Source: Allocoleopsis franciscana PCC 7113 (GTDB taxonomy: Bacteria > Cyanobacteriota > Cyanobacteriia > Cyanobacteriales > Coleofasciculaceae). From it: 64,000 nt of DNA. Below, in pieces: positions 3,335-37,179 of this stretch (positions within the stretch are counted from its first letter, which is position 1; every line of letters starts with the position of its first letter). The stretch is taken from NCBI RefSeq assembly GCF_000317515.1, contig NC_019738.1, forward strand, positions 1,937,623-2,001,622, read 5' to 3'. Made by a program: the position numbers and the translations under genes. Below the pieces are notes generated by a model. The model saw only the letters and a program-made list of their open reading frames with translations. It was not told where the DNA came from and searched no databases.

Positions 3335-3454
3335 GTGTCTGTACCGACTGCTATTTTTTAGGGTTCCAGGTCTTTACTTCTGCCATTTGCCCTCTGCCTT
3401 CTACCTTGTCTCCACCAAAAAATGAATAGTTAACCCGGATTTGGTATGAGATGG

Positions 3455-3850
3455 CTAACTCAACGATTCAACCAATTTTGCCACCCGTTCCTTCACTTCA
3501 TCTCGAACACGCTGAAACGTTTCGATGGATTCCCCTTCTGGGTCATCCAGTTGCCAATCTTCAAACACCTCCCGCACAACCCAAGATTCCGGCAAGTTCA
3601 CCCCACAACCGCAGAGGGAAATCACAGCATCATACTCTTCGGGATTAAAATCACTTAACGGTTTAGAAGTTTGCTCACTAATATCAATGCCAATTTCGGA
3701 CATCACTTCAACCGTCGTCGGATCGACCTGAGAAGCTTCCAGTCCCGAACTACTAACAGCAATCTTTCCTCCTCCCAACGTCCGAGCAAATCCTTCTGCC
3801 ATCTGAGAACGGCGAGAATTTTTCTTGCATACAAACATCACTCGTTTCAT
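3455..3850 (-). CDS. arsC: Arsenate reductase, LMW-PTP/thioredoxin-glutaredoxin-coupled type (Synechocystis ArsC-like)
   Basis: MKRVMFVCKKNSRRSQMAEGF contains the CX2NSXRS P-loop. ...LCGCGVNLP...EDWQLDDPEG is near-identical in pattern to cyanobacterial ArsC. AGGAGG Shine-Dalgarno sits 8 nt upstream of the ATG at 3850 (ORF track start 3895 is an upstream extension). Confidence 0.88.
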   Translation of the reverse strand: MKRVMFVCKKNSRRSQMAEGFARTLGGGKIAVSSSGLEASQVDPTTVEVMSEIGIDISEQTSKPLSDFNPEEYDAVISLCGCGVNLPESWVVREVFEDWQLDDPEGESIETFQRVRDEVKERVAKLVESLS

Positions 3851-3994
3851 ATTTAATACCTCCTGTTGAATACTCTGCACTAGCAGAAATTTCACTCTTC
3901 AAAAACTTGTAAAATCCTTCTTCATCTCTCTTTCTTCGTTTCCTCAAAATCCTTTGTGGTTCGTTTCTTTCCAAAATCAGATAAAGTGGCAATA

Positions 3995-11237: not shown

Positions 11238-12070
11238 CTTTCTACCCGAAGAATGAATTTAGCACCAGTAGGAAGGGTGAAGCACAACACAACTATCATC
11301 TCCAGGTTGATTAATCTTTAGTATTAAACTGATTAATCTTTAATATTAAACAAGTATATAGGGCGAAGAGGCGAAAAATCGGGTTTCAAGGCTGGGCTTT
11401 GGCACCTGAATACGGGCTTAACAATTCGAGAGGTTTGCTTTTCTTTTTTTTATATTTTCTTTATTATTTTAGTTCATAGATTCAGGTAAAATAGCTTATT
11501 TTAAATTCAAGAAATAACAATAGTTTAGCCAATTCCATCTAAAGAATGACTGGGATTCTGCCTCTAGAGTGAGAAAGAAATGACGAAAAAATTGGTAACT
11601 TTAGAGACGAAAAGAAAAGGTACTGGATGGGAGTTTAACCGCTGCGACCCATAGTTGTACATCAAAACAGAGCGATGTTAGATGTACAAACAGTGCATAT
11701 AGTTAGCTGACATCAACGGTGTGGAGTTTCTATCGATTTCTCCACTTTGTAACTACCGATGAGGGACTAAAATTCCCAGCAGAGCGGTCATTGGTAGGAG
11801 ACGTAAGGATGTCATCATAAAAACGCAATTAAGACGCCCATTCCGTCTTGGCTCAACTTGGCCCAAGGCGGAATGGCCGTATCAGGGAAAACAGATGTTA
11901 ATCAGGGAGCGTCTAAGCTGTTACGCATCTAATTTGCTTGTTGAGGCGGCGGGGGAGCAGAGCCGGAGCTCATACGAGGACAGAGGAGCGGATGTGAACT
12001 GTTTTATCCTGTGTTGAGAATGTGCAAGTTAAATGCGCTTTAGCTTACAAATGTTTAAATGCGCGATCGC

Positions 12071-20288: not shown

Positions 20289-20328
20289 TTCGCCATAAGT
20301 GCCAAGGATTGATATTATAGATTAGCCC

Positions 20329-20413
20329 GGAGAGGTGGCAGAGTGGTCGAATGCGCTCGACTTGAAATCGAGTGACTCGAAAGAGTCCGTGGGTTCGAAT
20401 CCCACCCTCTCCG
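20329..20413 (+). tRNA. tRNA-Ser (anticodon UGA)
   Basis: Acceptor stem GGAGAGG/CCTCTCC. Anticodon stem-loop GCTCGA-CTTGAAA-TCGAGT, giving anticodon TGA. Long variable arm GACTCGAAAGAGTCC. T-arm GTGGGTTCGAATCCCAC. Discriminator G, no encoded CCA. Folded by eye. Confidence 0.8.
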
Positions 20414-20549
20414 TTATCCAGTGAAACAGTATTGTGAGCGATCGCTTGGTTATATTGGTTCGTGACAGTGCAAATACACAAGTCGTTGTGCGTGAATCTC
20501 TGAAAGACGGCTGAACGCTTCTTCTCTCGGTTTGGTTGCGAGAGTTTAG

Positions 20550-28362: not shown

Positions 28363-29877
28363 TTGTCAGGGTTGCATTCTTATTCGTTCAGTAGAAGAGA
28401 ACAAAAGCTAAAAAAGAGCAGAGTGATGAACAGCAGAATAGTAGAAGAAGCGCAAGCAAGGCTGAAGCAGTCCATTATGACTTATCAGCAACAGCCAGTC
28501 GGGACGGTAGCAGCGAAGGAAGACGTTCTTGAAGAAGAACAACTCAACTATGGACATTGTTTTGTCCGCGATTTTGTTCCTTCAGGGCTTGCCTTTCTCA
28601 TGCAAGGAGAACGAGAAATCGTCCGGAATTTTCTTGAATTTACCTTAGCCTTGCAGTCTGATAGAGCTGGGTTAAAGAAAGGTCAAGGGTTATTTGGTGA
28701 AGTCAGACAACACTGGCAGGGGAAAGAACTTCTGATTGATGGAATTCGGTTAGGCGAAGGTTTAATGCCGGCTAGCTTTGAAGTAACATCAAATCAAGAA
28801 ATTGAACCTGATTTTGGTCAGCGAGCGATTGGCAGAGTAACACCCGTTGATTCAGGTTTGTGGTGGATTATTTTGTTACGAGCTTATGAAAAAGCTTGTC
28901 AAATAGCCAACCGACCAGAAGAAAAGATTGCTCATCGAATCGAATTCCAACGGGGCATTCAATTAATTCTGGATATTTGCTTGAGTAAGCGATTTGACAT
29001 GACCCCAACCATGTTAGTGCCAGAAGCGGCATTTATGATTGACCGTCGGATGGGAGTTTATGGACATCCGTTGGAAATTCAATCATTATTTCATCATGCT
29101 TTACGTGCTGCTCGTTATGAATTGCTCGTTAATGAAAGCTATATTGAAAAGCGGGAAGTGGATAGTCGGTTGCCGTTGCTGACGAAATACATTCGAGAAC
29201 GGTATTGGCTAGACCCCAAACGAGTGAGGGCAATCTATCGTTACCAGACGGAAGAGTTTGGGGAAACGGCTTTAAATAAGTTCAATATCTACGAGAATTC
29301 TGTTCCTGAATGGGTACTACCTTGGGTAGACAGAAAAGGAGGTTATTTAGTTGGAAATTTGGGTGTTGGCTGGATAGATTTTCGTTTTTTCTCTCAAGGT
29401 AACTTGCTCAGTATTATTTCTGGGCTAGCTACACCTGAGCAGTCAAACAGCATTATGCATTTAATTGAACTGCAATGGTCGAAGTTGATGGGAAATATGC
29501 CGATGAAGCTGTGTTATCCAGCCCTAGAGGAACGCGATTGGGAGAGTATTACGGGATGCGACCCCAAAAATGTCCCCTGGTCGTACCACAATGGTGGAAG
29601 TTGGCCTGTTTTGCTCTGGTCTTTAACAGCAGCAGCTCTAAAAACAAAGAAAATAGAGATAGCTGAACGTGCCATTCAACAGGCTGAACATTACTTATTA
29701 GATGATGAGTGGCCTGAATATTATGATGGAAAGAATGGCGATGTCATTGGCAGAGAGGCGAGACTTTATCAAACCTGGACAATTGCTGGATATTTAGTTG
29801 CCAAGTACCTGATTCAAGACCGCGATCATTTGAAATTAATTACCTTTGGTGATGAACCTGAATTAGGTGAGGAATGA
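28363..29877 (+). CDS. invA: Alkaline/neutral invertase (GH100)
   Basis: HCFVRDFVPSGLAFLMQGE...GRVTPVDSGLWWIILLRAY...YHNGGSWPVLLW are hallmark GH100 neutral invertase segments. The start may be the internal Met at 28417. Confidence 0.8.
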   Translation: MSGLHSYSFSRREQKLKKSRVMNSRIVEEAQARLKQSIMTYQQQPVGTVAAKEDVLEEEQLNYGHCFVRDFVPSGLAFLMQGEREIVRNFLEFTLALQSDRAGLKKGQGLFGEVRQHWQGKELLIDGIRLGEGLMPASFEVTSNQEIEPDFGQRAIGRVTPVDSGLWWIILLRAYEKACQIANRPEEKIAHRIEFQRGIQLILDICLSKRFDMTPTMLVPEAAFMIDRRMGVYGHPLEIQSLFHHALRAARYELLVNESYIEKREVDSRLPLLTKYIRERYWLDPKRVRAIYRYQTEEFGETALNKFNIYENSVPEWVLPWVDRKGGYLVGNLGVGWIDFRFFSQGNLLSIISGLATPEQSNSIMHLIELQWSKLMGNMPMKLCYPALEERDWESITGCDPKNVPWSYHNGGSWPVLLWSLTAAALKTKKIEIAERAIQQAEHYLLDDEWPEYYDGKNGDVIGREARLYQTWTIAGYLVAKYLIQDRDHLKLITFGDEPELGEE

Positions 29878-30169
29878 GCTAACAACTAAGTTTATCTGAA
29901 GTTATTAAAAGTAGGGTAACCCCCTACTTGTTCATTGGGGGTGGAGGTCGATATGATCTGATTTTTATCTCTTCATCCCCGGCTGTTTATTGCCTGTTTT
30001 ACTTTCTCAACTTCAGGAGACCGCAAAGTTCTGCAATTGCCTACGGCACCAGCGAAGCTGAGCGCCAAGAATTAGTAGTGTATGATGCCGTTAAACGATC
30101 AGCAAAAAGGGAATGTTTTACATTTAGTGCCACAGAGCCACCAACTCTATGCCTATAAACGATCTTTCC

Positions 30170-30952
30170 CTATTTGATCAGGCGAGCAATAAACTCATCA
30201 TAAGCCTCTTTCATCGGCAATTCTTCATCCACTTTGATCCGATGCCGTGTCACTACAACTTCTTGTTCCCGAACCGGATCGAAGCCTGATTTCTCGTAGT
30301 CTTCCCAGTACAAACCCACCCCTCGACGCTGCCAGGTAGGTAACGCATTGAAATTGATACCATGCTGAAAAAGCAACTCGTTTTTGAAGGCAATGGACTG
30401 ACCCTCCAGCGTTGCTGTCGCAGACCTTTTGCTTTCGCCTGCTTTGCGTAGCGTCCAGTAACACCAACCATTTAACGCACAACGAGTGGCATCTGCCTGC
30501 CGCCAACGAAAGTAATCCACGACTTGTGACTTGTCTACCCCTAACCAGACGCGGCTATCAAAATTGACGACACTTCCAGAGATATGGGTAAAAGTTGCAC
30601 TGGCAATACTGGCAGAAATTGAAACAATTTTTTCCAAACTGCGGTCAAACAAATCCCAGTTCGGACGAAATAACACAGAAATTTCATCGCTTTCTGTGTA
30701 GGCGTAAATTCCGTGAAGTTCTTCTAACAGCGCTGAAGCCGTTTGCACCATTACCCTGTGAAACTCCAAATCAAACGGCTTCTCAAATCGTGACTCTGTA
30801 AAGCGCGAGAACCCACGACCATCCACACGAATTACGACCCAAGCACCAGGCAAGAGGCGTAGGGAGTGAAAGTACTCCAAAGAACGCATTTTGTGTTCAA
30901 AGCGATCATTATCCATCAGCGACCTCCACTTCAGTCCACGCACGAATCTCAA
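30170..30952 (-). CDS. Thg1-like protein (tRNA-His guanylyltransferase family, bacterial TLP), a 3'-5' nucleotidyl transferase
   Basis: VVIRVDGRGFSRFTESRFEKPFDLEFHRVMVQTA...YTESDEISVLFRP matches the Thg1 catalytic core (RxDG.GF, KPFD, SDE). Confidence 0.8.
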   Translation of the reverse strand: MRFVRGLKWRSLMDNDRFEHKMRSLEYFHSLRLLPGAWVVIRVDGRGFSRFTESRFEKPFDLEFHRVMVQTASALLEELHGIYAYTESDEISVLFRPNWDLFDRSLEKIVSISASIASATFTHISGSVVNFDSRVWLGVDKSQVVDYFRWRQADATRCALNGWCYWTLRKAGESKRSATATLEGQSIAFKNELLFQHGINFNALPTWQRRGVGLYWEDYEKSGFDPVREQEVVVTRHRIKVDEELPMKEAYDEFIARLIK

Positions 30953-31382
30953 AAGCCGAGTTATCCGCCATCTTCACATAAAACAGTTGATGGAAGCCCT
31001 CCGCATAAGAAGGGGGGACTAACTTCTGATTTGTGGCGAAAATTCCTACATCGGGTACTCTGGCTTTACCCGTGCGTTGCTGGTTGCGTTCCAGACAATC
31101 ACTGACTTTGGATTGAAAGTAATATCCCAAAATCTGAGCGCCGTATAGCTTGCCTAGTTCAATGAGTGAGGCTCGTTCCTCAACTGTTGGGTTGGTATTA
31201 TCAACGACAACAGAACGACTCGCTTGTAGTGCCGCTTCAACGAGCTGTGCTTGCCTTCTAGCACGATTTTTATTGTTCCGCATCAAGTCTTTACTCACAA
31301 GTTCGTGGGTTGCCGCCCAATACTGATGGAAGAAGGTACTCTTCCCCGAAGCTTGTAGACCGATCAAGATGACTAACTCCAT
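30909..31382 (-). CDS. P-loop kinase (AAA_33 / polynucleotide-kinase-like), overlapping the Thg1-like gene by 44 nt
   Basis: Walker A ILIGLQASGKST. About 157 aa. A Walker B-like VVVDNTN follows. Confidence 0.7.
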   Translation of the reverse strand: MELVILIGLQASGKSTFFHQYWAATHELVSKDLMRNNKNRARRQAQLVEAALQASRSVVVDNTNPTVEERASLIELGKLYGAQILGYYFQSKVSDCLERNQQRTGKARVPDVGIFATNQKLVPPSYAEGFHQLFYVKMADNSAFEIRAWTEVEVADG

Positions 31383-31656
31383 AATCCGTGAGAGCTATCT
31401 ATTTGCGGGCGAGACAATTTGTCTTTTATCGACCTAATTTCGATAAAGGTTAACCGACTTGAGGATAGGATAAAACTTATTATTTGCCGTCACCTTTTTC
31501 TCTTGCTGTATAAAATGACGAATTCAAGATCATCATCAGTGGTACCAGTCTATCGAAGGAGGTTCATCCGCTCTGGCGTTGACGCGCAAACCAATCCGGT
31601 CAGAATCTTTTAAAGAAGCCCTGTTACGATTACAAATAATGGAGTAAAGGCAAGCG

Positions 31657-32745
31657 ATGAGCGCTCAATACAGCAGTCGTAGATGGCAAGAGCCAGCTAT
31701 TTGCCGCATTTTAGACGCCAATTTAGACCGAGCGAGAGAAGGCTTGCGAATTATTGAAGAGTGGTGCCGTTTTGGTCTCAATAGCGGCTCACTGGCACAA
31801 GAATGCAAGCAAATGCGCCAGGAATTAGCTAGCTGGCATACTCAAGAAATTCGGGCATCACGGGATACTCCACAAGACCCTGGCACCGATTTGACTCACC
31901 CGAAGGAAGAACAGCGCTCCAGTATTGAGCAGCTTTTGCAGGCTAATCTTTGCCGAGTGGAAGAAGCGCTGCGGGTGTTGGAAGAATACGGCAAGCTTTA
32001 TCACCCAGAGATGGGTGCAGTCTTTAAGCAGATGCGCTACCGAGTTTATACATTGGAGAGCAATTTGCTGACCTATCGGCGTCATCAACTCTTGGAGCGA
32101 TCGCATCTTTACCTGGTTACGTCTGCTTCAGAACAGCTATTTACCACGGTAGAAGCGGCGCTTCAAGGTGGACTCACCCTGGTACAGTACCGAGAAAAAA
32201 CCGCAGACGATACGGAGAGGCTCTCCTATGCCCAGAAACTATGCCAGATGTGCCATCACTACGGGGCGTTGTTTATCATGAACGACCGGGTCGATTTAGC
32301 CTTGGCGGTGGATGCGGATGGTGTGCATTTAGGGCAACAGGATATCCCGATCGCCCTAGCACGGCAACTCCTTGGCTCCCAGCGCCTCATTGGTCGCTCG
32401 ACCACCAATCCGGAGGAAATGCGACGTGCGATTGATGAAGGTGCAGACTATATCGGTGTGGGGCCGATTTATGAGACGCCGACCAAAGAAGGGAAGGCCG
32501 CAGCGGGTTTGGAGTATGTGCAATATGCCGCTAAGCAGGCCACCATACCCTGGTTTGCGATCGGAGGCATCGATCCAAGTAATATTAACGAGGTTCTAGG
32601 AGCCGGTGCCCAGCGAGTAGCCATTGTGCGTGCCATCATGCAAGCTGACCAACCGACCCTAGTCACGCAGTACTTTTTGTCTCAACTCACACGACAGCAC
32701 ACTCTCCGTAGCATCGAAGCCCGTGTCACTCAATCTCATGTCTAA
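31657..32745 (+). CDS. thiE: Thiamine-phosphate synthase with cyanobacterial-type N-terminal extension
   Basis: The C-terminal ~215 aa (LYLVTSASEQ...HLGQQD...IGRSTTN...IGVGPIYETPTK...FAIGGI) are a canonical ThiE. The N-terminal ~130 aa are an extra domain. Confidence 0.85.
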   Translation: MSAQYSSRRWQEPAICRILDANLDRAREGLRIIEEWCRFGLNSGSLAQECKQMRQELASWHTQEIRASRDTPQDPGTDLTHPKEEQRSSIEQLLQANLCRVEEALRVLEEYGKLYHPEMGAVFKQMRYRVYTLESNLLTYRRHQLLERSHLYLVTSASEQLFTTVEAALQGGLTLVQYREKTADDTERLSYAQKLCQMCHHYGALFIMNDRVDLALAVDADGVHLGQQDIPIALARQLLGSQRLIGRSTTNPEEMRRAIDEGADYIGVGPIYETPTKEGKAAAGLEYVQYAAKQATIPWFAIGGIDPSNINEVLGAGAQRVAIVRAIMQADQPTLVTQYFLSQLTRQHTLRSIEARVTQSHV

Positions 32746-32959
32746 CACAAGCGATCGCATTACTCTTCAAGTAAATGGTGAAACCCGTACCTGTGAACCC
32801 CACACTTTGCTTCCGCAACTTCTAGAACAGTTAGGCTTAAATCCCCGCCTAGTCGCCGTGGAGTATAACGGCGAGATTCTCCATCGGCAATATTGGTCCG
32901 AAACTCAAATCCAGGAGGGCGACAAGCTGGAAATTGTCACGATTGTTGGGGGTGGGTAA
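32738..32959 (+). CDS. thiS: Sulfur-carrier protein ThiS
   Basis: ITLQVNGETRTCE...EIVTIVGGG is a beta-grasp protein with a C-terminal GG. It overlaps the thiE stop. Confidence 0.8.
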   Translation: MSNTSDRITLQVNGETRTCEPHTLLPQLLEQLGLNPRLVAVEYNGEILHRQYWSETQIQEGDKLEIVTIVGGG

Positions 32960-34632: not shown

Positions 34633-37179
34633 ATGGAAGACTCAATCACTCAATCTCATCAATCAGAAGCCACTCTTTCTAAGAGCGAACTGCGATGGCG
34701 AAGAATCTCTGCTCGTGTGCCGGGAGTCATTTACCAATTTTTGAGGTATCCAGATGGCACTCTGGCTTTTCCCTTTATCAGTCCGAGTTGTCGCCGGATT
34801 TTTGAAGTGGAGGCGATTGAGATTGAAGCCGATGCCAGTGTTCTCATGTCGATGATTCACCCACAGGATGAAGAAGACTTCAACCGCTCAGTGACCCATT
34901 CCATTGAAACCTTACAGCCATGGTCTTGGGAAGGCCGGTTTATCTTACCATCGGGGCAGATTAAATGGATTCAAGCGGCTTCTGCACCGGAACGACAGGC
35001 GGATGGAGAGATTCTCTGGGATGGCTTGCTCATCGACATCACGGCACGCAAACAAGCGGAAGATGAGTTGTGGCAGACGAGGAAAGAACTTGAACATAGT
35101 GTGGAGGAAAGGACAGGTGAGTTAAGCCCGGTTAATGAACCGCTACGATTCACGCAGTTTTCCATGGATTATGCTCCTGAGGCGATTTTGTGGATGGATG
35201 GCGAGGCTCACTTCTTTTACGTCAACGAAGCGGCTTGCCAAATGTTGGGCTATTCTCGTAAGGAACTGCTCTCGATGAGTGTCTATGATGTCGATCCCAA
35301 CCTTCCTGCTCAATCTTGGCCAGAATACCGAAAAAAACTAAAACCTTTGGGTTCTGTGACTTTAGAGTCTACAAACCGTGCTAAAGATGGTCGAATTTTC
35401 CCGGTTGAGATTAGCATCAATCATCTAGAATTCAAGGGTCAAGAGTATAACTGCATCTTTGTCCGCGACATCAGCGAGCGCTATAAAGCAAAGGAAGCGC
35501 TTCAACAAAGCGAACAAAAGTTTCGCAGCATGGTGGAAAATGCGAACGATATTATTTATCAGTTAACACCGGATGGCATCTTTTCTTATGTTTCCCCGAA
35601 CTGGGTTGAACTTTTAGGGCACGAAATTTCAGAGGTTGAGGGCAAAGTTTTTACTCTGTTTGTCCATCCCGATGACGTACCCGTCTGTTTGGGTACCTTA
35701 CGTCGAGCGATCGAAAAGGCTCAAAATCAATCTGGGGTTGAGTACCGAGTTAGACACAAGACTGGTACTTGGCGATGGTATATCTCCAATCTGTCACTGT
35801 TGAGAGACGCTAGCGGGCGCGTGGTGTCAGTGATTGGGATTGCTCGTGATATTAGCGATCGCAAACAAGCCGAGGACGCCTTGCGAGAGAGTGAGGAGCG
35901 ATTTCGGAATCTGGTTGAAAGCACTAACGATTTCATTTGGGAGGTTGACCGGAATGCCATATACACCTACGTTAGTCCCCAAATTAAAGATACTTTAGGT
36001 TATGAAGTGGCAGAGGTTTTAGGTAAAACACCCTTTGACTTCATGCCCTCCGAAGAAGCCTGTTGTGTAAGTGAGCTGATGAGTAATCGGGTGGCTTTGC
36101 GACAGTCAATTACCAATCTTGAGAACAGCAACTTTCACAAAGATGGACATATTGTAGTACTCGAAATGAGTGGTGTACCTTTCTTTGATCAGGCGGGTAA
36201 TTTCCAAGGGTATCGCGGTATCGATAGAGATATTACTAAGCGCAAGCAAACGGAGGAAGCCGTCCGGCAATCGAAAGTGCAGCTACAACGACAAGCCAAT
36301 CAATTAGAACAAACCTTACGCAAACTTCAGAATACGCAGGCACAGCTCATTCAAACTGAGAAAATGTCTTCTCTAGGGCAGTTGGTGGCGGGGATGGCTC
36401 ACGAAATTAATAATCCCATTAATTTCATTTATGGCAATATTAACCATGCCCATAATTATATTAGTGACTTATTCTATCTGATTAATTTGTATCAAAAAAA
36501 TCTGCCTCATTCTACCCTAGAAATTGCAGCAAAAATTGATGAGGTTGACCTAGATTTTGTAATAGAAGATTTCCCCAAACTCCTTGATTCTATGAAATTA
36601 GGGGCTGAACGGATTCGGAAAATTGTTCAGAGTTTAAGTACTTTTTCTCGTGTGGATGAAGCGGCTGTTAAAGAGGTGGATATTCATCAAGGAATTGATA
36701 GTACTTTAATTCTTTTAGAAGGTCGTTTGAAGCCACCGTTGAACTCTCAGACGATTCAGGTGATTAAAGACTATAGTAATCTGCCTTTGGTCAAGTGCTA
36801 TCCAGGAGAACTCAATCAGGTTTTCATGAATCTCCTGAATAATGCCATTGATGCGTTAGAGAAACAGAACCGTCATCAGAATTTTGCCGAAATTAGTGCT
36901 AACCCTGGCATGATCAAAATTCGCACGGAAATAAGTTCAAAATCTGCCTCCAAGCCCTGGATTGTGATTCGCATTGTAGATAATGGTTCAGGTATGACAG
37001 AAGAAGTGAGTTCCAGAGCTTTTGACCCCTTTTTCACGACAAAACCCGTCGGCGAAGGTACGGGTTTAGGGTTAGCCATTAGCTACCAAATTGTGGTTGA
37101 GCTCCACAAGGGGCGATTGTACTGTATTTCCTCTCCGGGTCAAGGAACTGAATTTGTGATTGAACTTCCTAATTTCTAA
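34633..37179 (+). CDS. Multi-PAS sensor histidine kinase
   Basis: At least 4 PAS/PAC modules (ARDISDRKQAEDAL, GIDRDITKRKQTEEA-type PAC ends). H-box AGMAHEINNPINF. ATPase GTGLGLAIS. 848 aa. Confidence 0.85.
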   Translation: MEDSITQSHQSEATLSKSELRWRRISARVPGVIYQFLRYPDGTLAFPFISPSCRRIFEVEAIEIEADASVLMSMIHPQDEEDFNRSVTHSIETLQPWSWEGRFILPSGQIKWIQAASAPERQADGEILWDGLLIDITARKQAEDELWQTRKELEHSVEERTGELSPVNEPLRFTQFSMDYAPEAILWMDGEAHFFYVNEAACQMLGYSRKELLSMSVYDVDPNLPAQSWPEYRKKLKPLGSVTLESTNRAKDGRIFPVEISINHLEFKGQEYNCIFVRDISERYKAKEALQQSEQKFRSMVENANDIIYQLTPDGIFSYVSPNWVELLGHEISEVEGKVFTLFVHPDDVPVCLGTLRRAIEKAQNQSGVEYRVRHKTGTWRWYISNLSLLRDASGRVVSVIGIARDISDRKQAEDALRESEERFRNLVESTNDFIWEVDRNAIYTYVSPQIKDTLGYEVAEVLGKTPFDFMPSEEACCVSELMSNRVALRQSITNLENSNFHKDGHIVVLEMSGVPFFDQAGNFQGYRGIDRDITKRKQTEEAVRQSKVQLQRQANQLEQTLRKLQNTQAQLIQTEKMSSLGQLVAGMAHEINNPINFIYGNINHAHNYISDLFYLINLYQKNLPHSTLEIAAKIDEVDLDFVIEDFPKLLDSMKLGAERIRKIVQSLSTFSRVDEAAVKEVDIHQGIDSTLILLEGRLKPPLNSQTIQVIKDYSNLPLVKCYPGELNQVFMNLLNNAIDALEKQNRHQNFAEISANPGMIKIRTEISSKSASKPWIVIRIVDNGSGMTEEVSSRAFDPFFTTKPVGEGTGLGLAISYQIVVELHKGRLYCISSPGQGTEFVIELPNF

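Follow-up and report, generated by a model that had tools for sequence, protein, structure and literature searches.

Why should a bacterium encode a small P-loop kinase directly before, and in overlap with, a protein related to the 3'-5' polymerase Thg1? The question is raised by two genes of the cyanobacterium Allocoleopsis franciscana PCC 7113, which lie in a stretch of 64,000 nucleotides (NCBI RefSeq assembly GCF_000317515.1, contig NC_019738.1, positions 1,937,623 to 2,001,622 of the forward strand) that is called the window here; coordinates below count from its first nucleotide. The genes form a two-gene operon on the minus strand, with the kinase first and a Thg1-like protein (TLP) second. 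An initial annotation of this DNA had read the pair as a putative RNA 5'-end repair module; both of its open reading frames (ORFs) are present at the coordinates it gave, and the gene boundaries that we favour (lengths in amino acids [aa]) are as follows.

30909..31382, minus strand: stand-alone P-loop kinase belonging to the polynucleotide-kinase family, first gene of the operon (157 aa, ATG start)
30170..30916, minus strand: TLP, a predicted 3'-5' templated RNA polymerase, second gene of the operon (248 aa from the ATG at 30916)

Our answer is that this coupled operon probably heals and then rebuilds RNA 5' ends. In a first step, which we infer, the kinase would move a phosphate from a nucleoside triphosphate (NTP) to a 5'-hydroxyl (5'-OH) RNA end, leaving a 5'-phosphate (5'-P). 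Ends of the 5'-OH kind arise from transesterifying RNases (many toxins and defence nucleases among them) and from spontaneous strand scission. In a second step, known in vitro for related TLPs, the TLP would activate the 5'-monophosphate with ATP or GTP and then add the lost nucleotides in the 3'-5' direction, with the opposite strand as template; on a 5'-truncated tRNA the template would be the 3' half of the acceptor stem and the outcome a fully paired 5' end. The kinase would widen the range of ends usable by the TLP from 5'-P to 5'-OH, and tRNA would be the most likely substrate of the pair. Bacterial TLPs do restore 5'-truncated, 5'-monophosphorylated tRNAs in vitro (PMC3061083), by the templated 3'-5' addition that the initial annotation had ascribed to them. 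TLPs require a 5'-monophosphate (activated with ATP or GTP) or a 5'-triphosphate, and then add Watson-Crick-templated nucleotides to 5'-truncated tRNAs (PMC3061083, PMC11957112).

Both the pairing and the mechanism are already known as a comparative-genomics prediction of 2010, when Anantharaman, Iyer and Aravind (Biol Direct 5:43, PMC2904730) described the neighbourhood of Thg1 and polynucleotide kinase as the most persistent bacterial Thg1 association and proposed that the kinase makes the 5'-phosphate needed by Thg1. The idea of an RNA 5'-end repair module is supported by inference, and its central logic, in which the kinase feeds Thg1, had been published. The window pair is an instance of that neighbourhood: a P-loop kinase that belongs to the polynucleotide kinase (PNK) family stands beside a stand-alone gene of the Thg1 family, both on one strand, as it does across distant lineages. 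A subset of the published operons has optional Macro-domain and RNA-ligase genes that the window copy is without, and nothing substantive differs; the optional Macro-domain/RNA-ligase operon gene is seen, among the related loci, only in the Chamaesiphon locus described below (L016). The window is one more ordinary instance and opens no new question of its own. What we add to the 2010 description is the count of loci with the pair (60 of 78), the statistics of the gene junction, a natural fusion protein and the scarcity of the kinase in viral loci.

Homologues of the kinase are publicly annotated as 'predicted kinase' or 'ATP-binding protein'. The 157-aa protein, whose N-terminus reads MELVILIGLQASGKST, matches AAA_33 (PF13671) in Pfam at 2e-16 and 61 bits (cut-off 27), with a weaker match to KTI12. 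Its best NCBIfam match is bacter_Pnkp (4.9e-12), followed by eukaryotic PNK-3'Pase (1.6e-9) and PSTK (3.3e-8); all of these lie far under the equivalog cut-offs because the kinase domain alone is present, and because of these low scores the kinase is placed, by sequence, in a subfamily separate from Pnkp. An orthologue of trifunctional Pnkp (approximately 850 aa, TIGR04075) was considered and rejected, with 44.8 bits against a cut-off of 750 and a match to the kinase domain only. Among PDB sequences the best matches are the kinase domains of mouse PNKP (5e-11) and of Clostridium thermocellum Pnkp (CthPnkp; 9e-8), and the best match among PHROGs is 'polynucleotide kinase'. An AlphaFold2 model (mean predicted local distance difference test score, pLDDT, of 82) gives the same picture when compared with PDB structures by Foldseek: the top 17 matches are PNKP, CthPnkp and the stand-alone kinases of Mucorales, which are tRNA-splicing RNA 5'-OH kinases (PMC11571804), with 6-phosphofructo-2-kinase (PFKFB) structures from rank 18 and PSTK also after the top 17. 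After the polynucleotide kinases, the next best matches are PSTK and KTI12, both tRNA-directed. The description of a Walker-A kinase of PNK/AAA_33 type therefore stands. Membership in a metabolic kinase family, named beforehand as one outcome that would speak against the initial annotation, was not found, the best NCBIfam, PDB, PHROG and Foldseek matches all being polynucleotide 5'-kinases; judged by sequence and modelled fold, the window protein is of the polynucleotide 5'-kinase family and not of the gluconate or shikimate type.

In the alignment with PNKP the P-loop, the VSKD/VNRD Asp, VVDNTN/VIDNTN and the C-terminal EGF coincide, and the features of the PNK clade (Walker A, a conserved Asp that follows strand 2, another Asp that is Walker-B-like, and the lid arginines R99 and R103) are all present. 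In 56 partner kinases, residues G8, G13, K14, S30, D32, Q44, D61-N62-T63, R99, N100, R103 and P110 are invariant, and the principal motifs map as follows (invariance over the same 56 proteins).

31338..31361, minus strand: Walker A motif or P-loop, GLQASGKS, kinase residues 8-15 (G8, G13 and K14 invariant; aligns with GFPGAGKS of PNKP)
31287..31289, minus strand: kinase Asp32 of VSKD, which may serve as general base towards the 5'-OH acceptor (invariant, with S30; aligns with the Asp of VNRD in mouse PNKP)
31194..31202, minus strand: kinase D61-N62-T63 of VVDNTN, Walker-B-like (invariant; VIDNTN in the PNKP alignment)

The catalytic role of Asp32 is one that we take to be the same as in PNK-family enzymes generally. 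A DxxR acceptor motif in the style of T4 PNK was also considered and set aside; the window kinase has D32-x-x-R35, but R35 is not conserved among the partner kinases. With the kinase domains of PNKP, CthPnkp and the Mucorales enzymes, the window kinase shares its predicted fold (template modelling [TM] scores of 0.67-0.76, query-normalised), the P-loop, the Asp of SKD and VDNTN, and with the Mucorales enzyme also the form of a stand-alone kinase of approximately 160 aa. Unlike them, it is only 19-30% identical in sequence to any, has no fused phosphatase, ligase or FHA domain, and is partnered by a 3'-5' polymerase rather than a ligase.

How closely are the two genes tied? The longest ORF of the TLP gene covers 30170-30952 (260 aa from a TTG at 30952) and contains the Thg1 core motifs RVDGRGFSRF, KPFDLEF and SDEISV; the initial annotation had named these motifs, a 260-aa protein and a 44-nucleotide (nt) overlap with the kinase gene. 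The core motifs hold, and the length and the overlap most likely do not. The 120 closest TLP homologues in the databases are 244-275 aa long (mostly 247-256 aa), and in a 31-sequence alignment (A1) homologues begin at a Met that matches the in-frame ATG at 30916 ('MDNDRF'). This ATG is preceded by GGAGG, and a reading of the sequence before the TTG at 30952 found no GGAG-type motif. Because the homologue starts align at the ATG and GGAGG precedes it, the predicted TLP most likely has 248 aa and its gene an overlap of 8 nt, not 44 nt, with that of the kinase.

30923..30927, minus strand: GGAGG Shine-Dalgarno (SD) sequence of the TLP gene, inside the 3' end of the kinase gene, with a 6-nt spacer to the ATG
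30909..30916, minus strand: 8-nt overlap, ATGGATAA, in which the ATG of the TLP gene overlaps the TAA stop codon of the kinase gene (sequence reading)

The same 8-nt overlap occurs in 9 of the 59 junctions analysed (the window included), among them examples from other phyla in a Ktedonobacteraceae (L010) and a Gemmataceae (L025) genome. Of the 59 junctions, 44 are overlaps of 4-20 nt, 11 have a gap of 2-4 nt and 4 have larger gaps, so that 55 have an overlap or a gap of at most 4 nt. An SD-like tetramer lies at positions -16 to -4 of the TLP start in 51 of the 59 loci, compared with 10.8% of control windows. Translational coupling, which the initial annotation had deduced from its longer overlap, is unaffected by the corrected start and, if anything, strengthened. 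A scan of 29800-31750 for promoters and terminators found no more sites than in shuffled sequence.

Is the pair conserved elsewhere? When one genome of each GTDB species was scanned, at least 576 TLP loci resulted, of which the best 80 were analysed; the search pattern for the collection was built from a 9-sequence alignment (A2), the 31-sequence alignment A1 being too divergent for a pattern. The 80 loci come from Cyanobacteria, Chloroflexota, Planctomycetota, Myxococcota, Deinococcota, Actinomycetota, Armatimonadota and Pseudomonadota. With the window kinase as tblastn query, the kinase gene was located directly upstream of the TLP gene, in the same orientation, in 60 of the 78 assessable loci, which span at least eight phyla (two of the 20 kinase-negative loci are cut by a contig end and were set aside). 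All-against-all clustering of the ORFs of the 80 loci found the TLP and the kinase to be the only families in common, with no conserved third gene beyond antisense shadow ORFs. Among 150 cluster representatives is a natural fusion of AAA_33, Thg1 and Thg1C in operon order (P0356, 397 aa, a single ORF on a 24-kb contig). Pairwise divergences of kinase and TLP are correlated (Mantel r = 0.846; none of 2000 permutations reaches this value), a result that simple co-inheritance would also be expected to give and that is not by itself proof of interaction. The pair is thus co-conserved, which goes against the second outcome named beforehand (a pair not conserved together elsewhere), and the tight overlap, the embedded SD sequence and the fusion protein argue that kinase and TLP act together in fixed proportion.

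These results also bear on the reading that the kinase phosphorylates a small molecule or a nucleotide, its place beside the TLP gene being metabolic (NTP supply, for example) or fortuitous. The breadth of the AAA_33 family and the PFKFB structures from fold rank 18 lend it something. Against this, the 17 better fold matches and all of the best sequence matches are polynucleotide kinases, no match to gluconate or shikimate kinase was reported for the window protein, and the conserved overlap, the fusion protein and the linkage across phyla argue against a chance pairing; we regard this explanation as exceedingly improbable.

The window TLP matches Thg1 (PF04446; 2.7e-31, 108.7 bits, cut-off 29.2) and Thg1C (PF14413; 2.6e-15, 57.1 bits, cut-off 26.3) in Pfam. 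Its best PDB match is the TLP of M. acetivorans (MaTLP; 5axk, 6.5e-34), followed by eukaryotic Thg1 (approximately 1e-22) and the Bacillus thuringiensis TLP (3e-21), and its sequence places it in the TLP subclass, closer to archaeal and bacterial TLPs than to eukaryotic Thg1. The catalytic residues are conserved.

30821..30823, minus strand: TLP Asp32 of RVDG, predicted metal-binding carboxylate (invariant in 56 pair-encoded TLPs; at least 90% in alignment A1)
30683..30691, minus strand: TLP S76-D77-E78, the SDE catalytic motif (no variation in A1, in A2 or in the same 56 TLPs)

We take Asp32 to be the equivalent of D29 of human Thg1, and the SDE motif to hold the equivalents of its D76 and E77. 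The segment CALNGWCYW of the window TLP aligns with CHINNLYNTTFW of Candida Thg1, a segment that matters for tRNA-His recognition in Thg1, and a tRNA-His recognition motif of the HINNLYN type is absent from the window TLP. The window protein shares Thg1 plus Thg1C, the catalytic D32 and S76-D77-E78 with the characterised enzymes from B. thuringiensis (BtTLP), M. xanthus (MxTLP) and M. acetivorans (PDB 4kgk, 5axk), and its identity to the TLPs of two further Myxococcus species (L038 and L039), each with the kinase upstream, is 63-64%. TLPs are tetramers. Templated 3'-5' addition has been demonstrated for BtTLP and MaTLP (PMC3061083), and MxTLP showed activity when assayed for repair of tRNA 5' ends (PMC11957112). 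Unlike the situation at the locus, the published enzymology used substrates with a 5'-P made by T4 PNK, or with a 5'-triphosphate, and did so without the native partner kinase (PMC3061083, PMC11957112).

TLP homologues carry the public annotation 'tRNA(His) guanylyltransferase Thg1 family protein'. A role in the quality control of tRNA-His is one alternative explanation: the TLP would restore a templated G-1 opposite C73 after mis-processing by RNase P, with the kinase as an accessory or serving an unrelated end. Thg1-family enzymes are indeed defined by G-1 addition, and bacterial and archaeal TLPs add templated G-1 to C73 tRNA-His in vitro (PMC3061083; review PMC6471195). RNase P leaves a 5'-phosphate and would make the kinase needless, yet the kinase is the sole conserved partner. 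TLPs moreover prefer 5'-truncated tRNAs and act also on tRNA-Phe (PMC3061083), and most bacteria encode G-1 in the genome (PMC3061083). The window TLP has CALNGWCYW where Candida Thg1 has the sequence given above and scores higher to archaeal 5axk than to eukaryotic Thg1, and a tRNA-His gene is linked neither in the window nor in the 60 related loci scanned for tRNA genes. On balance we find a tRNA-His function quite unlikely. For the heal-and-rebuild reading, no available clue is stronger than the conserved, coupled kinase, which suggests that the natural substrates of bacterial TLPs carry 5'-OH ends; such ends would point to RNase or chemical damage rather than to RNase P products.

At two loci the pair is part of a recognisable RNA-repair island. 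In a Chamaesiphon sp. (L016, contig CBDFFK010000003.1, 1-4813) the genes for a PARG/Macro-fold protein, a full Pnkp, the small kinase and the TLP follow one another in this order; the Pnkp (867 aa) has kinase, phosphatase and ligase domains, and two polynucleotide kinases hence stand in a row. On the mobilizable plasmid NZ_CP083459.1 of Deinococcus taeanensis (L085, 27431-33702), the kinase gene, which is annotated as 'AAA family ATPase', overlaps that of the TLP by 4 nt, and the two are followed on the same strand by DUF705, Hen1 (an RNA 3'-terminal 2'-O-methyltransferase) and a nucleotidyltransferase; a blastn search of the pair against plasmids gave only two partial matches, one of which leads to this island. 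Pnkp/Hen1 RNA repair, with which the pair co-occurs in the L016 genome and on the Deinococcus plasmid, likewise begins with a polynucleotide kinase step. The window differs from that system in lacking a phosphatase, a ligase and Hen1, and the predicted outcome is templated resynthesis of the 5' end, not the joining of halves.

The same islands bear on the alternative that the pair is a general end-processing module for nucleic-acid ends other than those of tRNA, either 5' ends of mRNA, rRNA or small RNA (sRNA) that pair with a complementary strand or 5'-OH ends of DNA. Among kinase structures, the nearest are those of PNKP, a DNA kinase, and of CthPnkp, solved with DNA bound; one TLP in the collection (P0246) is fused to DinB/IMS; and the substrates of bacterial TLPs are still to be identified (PMC11957112). 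All characterised Thg1 and TLP reactions, on the other side, use RNA acceptors and NTPs (PMC3061083, PMC11957112), the accessory neighbours, where there are any, are the RNA-repair genes Pnkp, Hen1 and RlaP, and the DinB fusion is a single case and a possible artefact. We judge this alternative to be unlikely. A bolder form of it is more doubtful still and in our view distinctly improbable, namely that the kinase-linked TLP clade is a two-enzyme system, self-sufficient and spreading horizontally, with other 5'-OH ends (RNase-cleaved mRNA, rRNA or sRNA on a complementary strand, even DNA) rather than truncated tRNAs as its real substrates. If ends of DNA or of RNAs other than tRNA were the substrates, the pair would represent a templated 'reverse fill-in' pathway for 5' ends, which is absent from current repair schemes.

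Several points weigh against our own answer. Repair of RNase damage usually also needs an enzyme that heals 2',3'-cyclic phosphates, or a ligase, and neither is found at the window locus. The kinase is absent from 18 of the 78 close TLP loci, and in the 80 best viral TLP loci (L086-L165) it is adjacent in only one (L093); because these 18 loci and 79 of the 80 viral loci have no adjacent kinase, the TLP has no strict need of it. The modelled kinase has its best structural match in PNKP, which acts on DNA, so that an RNA acceptor is not proven, and the limit on the Mantel correlation given above belongs here as well. In the TLP literature that we searched there is no experimental study of the partner kinase, and the word kinase is absent from the 2019 TLP review (PMC6471195). 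As noted, bacterial TLPs have yet to be assigned their physiological substrates, and a 2025 preprint gives only two TLPs, both from Dictyostelium, with a known physiological function (PMC11957112).

What stands beside the TLP where the kinase does not? In [Phormidium] sp. LEGE 05292 (L006, 2271-4818) a kinase-less TLP gene lies between two RlaP (PF10127) RNA-repair nucleotidyltransferases, the upstream one of which overlaps the TLP start, and this arrangement is a different TLP partnership. Another kinase-less locus (L036) has an HD-domain protein as neighbour, with the same ORF in L069, and a Ktedonobacteraceae locus (L021) has a LOG/SLOG gene (3364-3948) directly upstream of the TLP. Three TLPs of less than 40% identity are found in other contexts (DUF3800; patatin plus GmrSD; unannotated small genes with a cut-off 43-aa ORF upstream), and because of them the kinase link appears to be a property of the close clade and not of all TLPs. 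Among the fusion proteins in the collection, two representatives (P0370 and P0382) join a TLP to a circularly permuted YpsA SLOG domain, and the DinB/IMS case (P0246, 600 aa), in which the partner is a Y-family DNA polymerase, may have arisen from sequencing or gene calling.

Could the cassette instead be a mobile counter-measure, moved horizontally to undo the damage of a particular toxin or anti-phage tRNase in the manner of an antitoxin or of counter-defence? The TLPs of a Ktedonobacteraceae (L010), a Gemmatales (L014), an Archangium (L020), a Gemmataceae (L025) and a Deinococcus (L027) genome are 65-70% identical to the window TLP, which is unusually high across phyla and suggests horizontal transfer of the two-gene cassette; at 63-70%, the identities between cyanobacterial TLPs and those of Ktedonobacteria, Gemmatales, Myxococcota and Deinococcus likewise suggest horizontal spread. 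Also in favour of a mobile counter-measure are the copy on the mobilizable Deinococcus plasmid and the at least 555 TLP relatives on viral contigs in IMG/VR (many of these contigs being longer than 100 kb), two of which (L086 and L087) are 64-65% identical to the window TLP. A HepT-like gene (HEPN RNase toxin) lies immediately upstream of a kinase-less TLP in an Anaerolineales metagenome-assembled genome (L024, 3060-3925), and before it stands a small ORF without annotation, at the place where one would look for an antitoxin gene; none of the other loci among the 80 is toxin-adjacent.

The surroundings of the window pair tell against a counter-measure. Next to the pair are genes for a flavin amine-oxidase-type oxidoreductase, an alkaline/neutral invertase (convergent), a ThiD2-ThiE fusion with ThiS (divergent) and a DUF1517 protein, and its GC content of approximately 47% is within the range of the flanks (42-53%), with no island signature. 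The thiE gene is also upstream in two related cyanobacteria (L001 and L003), a synteny that suggests local vertical inheritance. No toxin, ligase, phosphatase, Macro or Hen1 gene was found near the window pair, no toxin or defence gene is conserved beside the pair elsewhere, PADLOC gave no significant defence-system match (sole hit 0.0053), and viral TLPs almost never have the kinase. A dedicated counter-measure is, in our estimation, very improbable. The initial annotation had proposed a stress or anti-toxin cassette and a search for a nearby RNA-targeting toxin; the search was negative at this locus, which leaves the anti-toxin part without support there. Since the cassette sits among housekeeping genes and neither toxin nor ligase nor phosphatase is linked to it, a role in general maintenance or under stress is suggested for the heal-and-rebuild operon rather than that of a dedicated antitoxin.

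Neither does the DNA around the pair offer a dedicated RNA substrate. The window has a single tRNA gene, tRNA-Ser(TGA) (20328-20414, plus strand), 10 kb from the operon, and a tRNA scan of the 60 related loci found none. Rfam gave only two matches in the whole window, both approximately 10 kb or more from the operon, with no RNA family in or next to it, and no linked RNA gene that could be such a substrate in 17 related loci. A match to the cyanobacterial sRNA CyVA-1 (RF02965) covers 11620-11696 on the plus strand at full length and 74 bits (gathering threshold 41.4). The ThiD2-ThiE fusion (362 aa) and ThiS occupy 31657-32959 on the plus strand, with the ThiS start overlapping the ThiE gene by 23 nt; a divergent intergenic region of 274 bp separates them from the kinase-TLP operon, and no thiamine pyrophosphate (TPP) riboswitch was found for this cluster at the Rfam gathering threshold. 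An 848-aa protein (34633-37179, plus strand), encoded approximately 3.3 kb upstream on the strand opposite to the operon and without an evident connection to it, has the look of a multi-PAS sensor histidine kinase when its translation is read.

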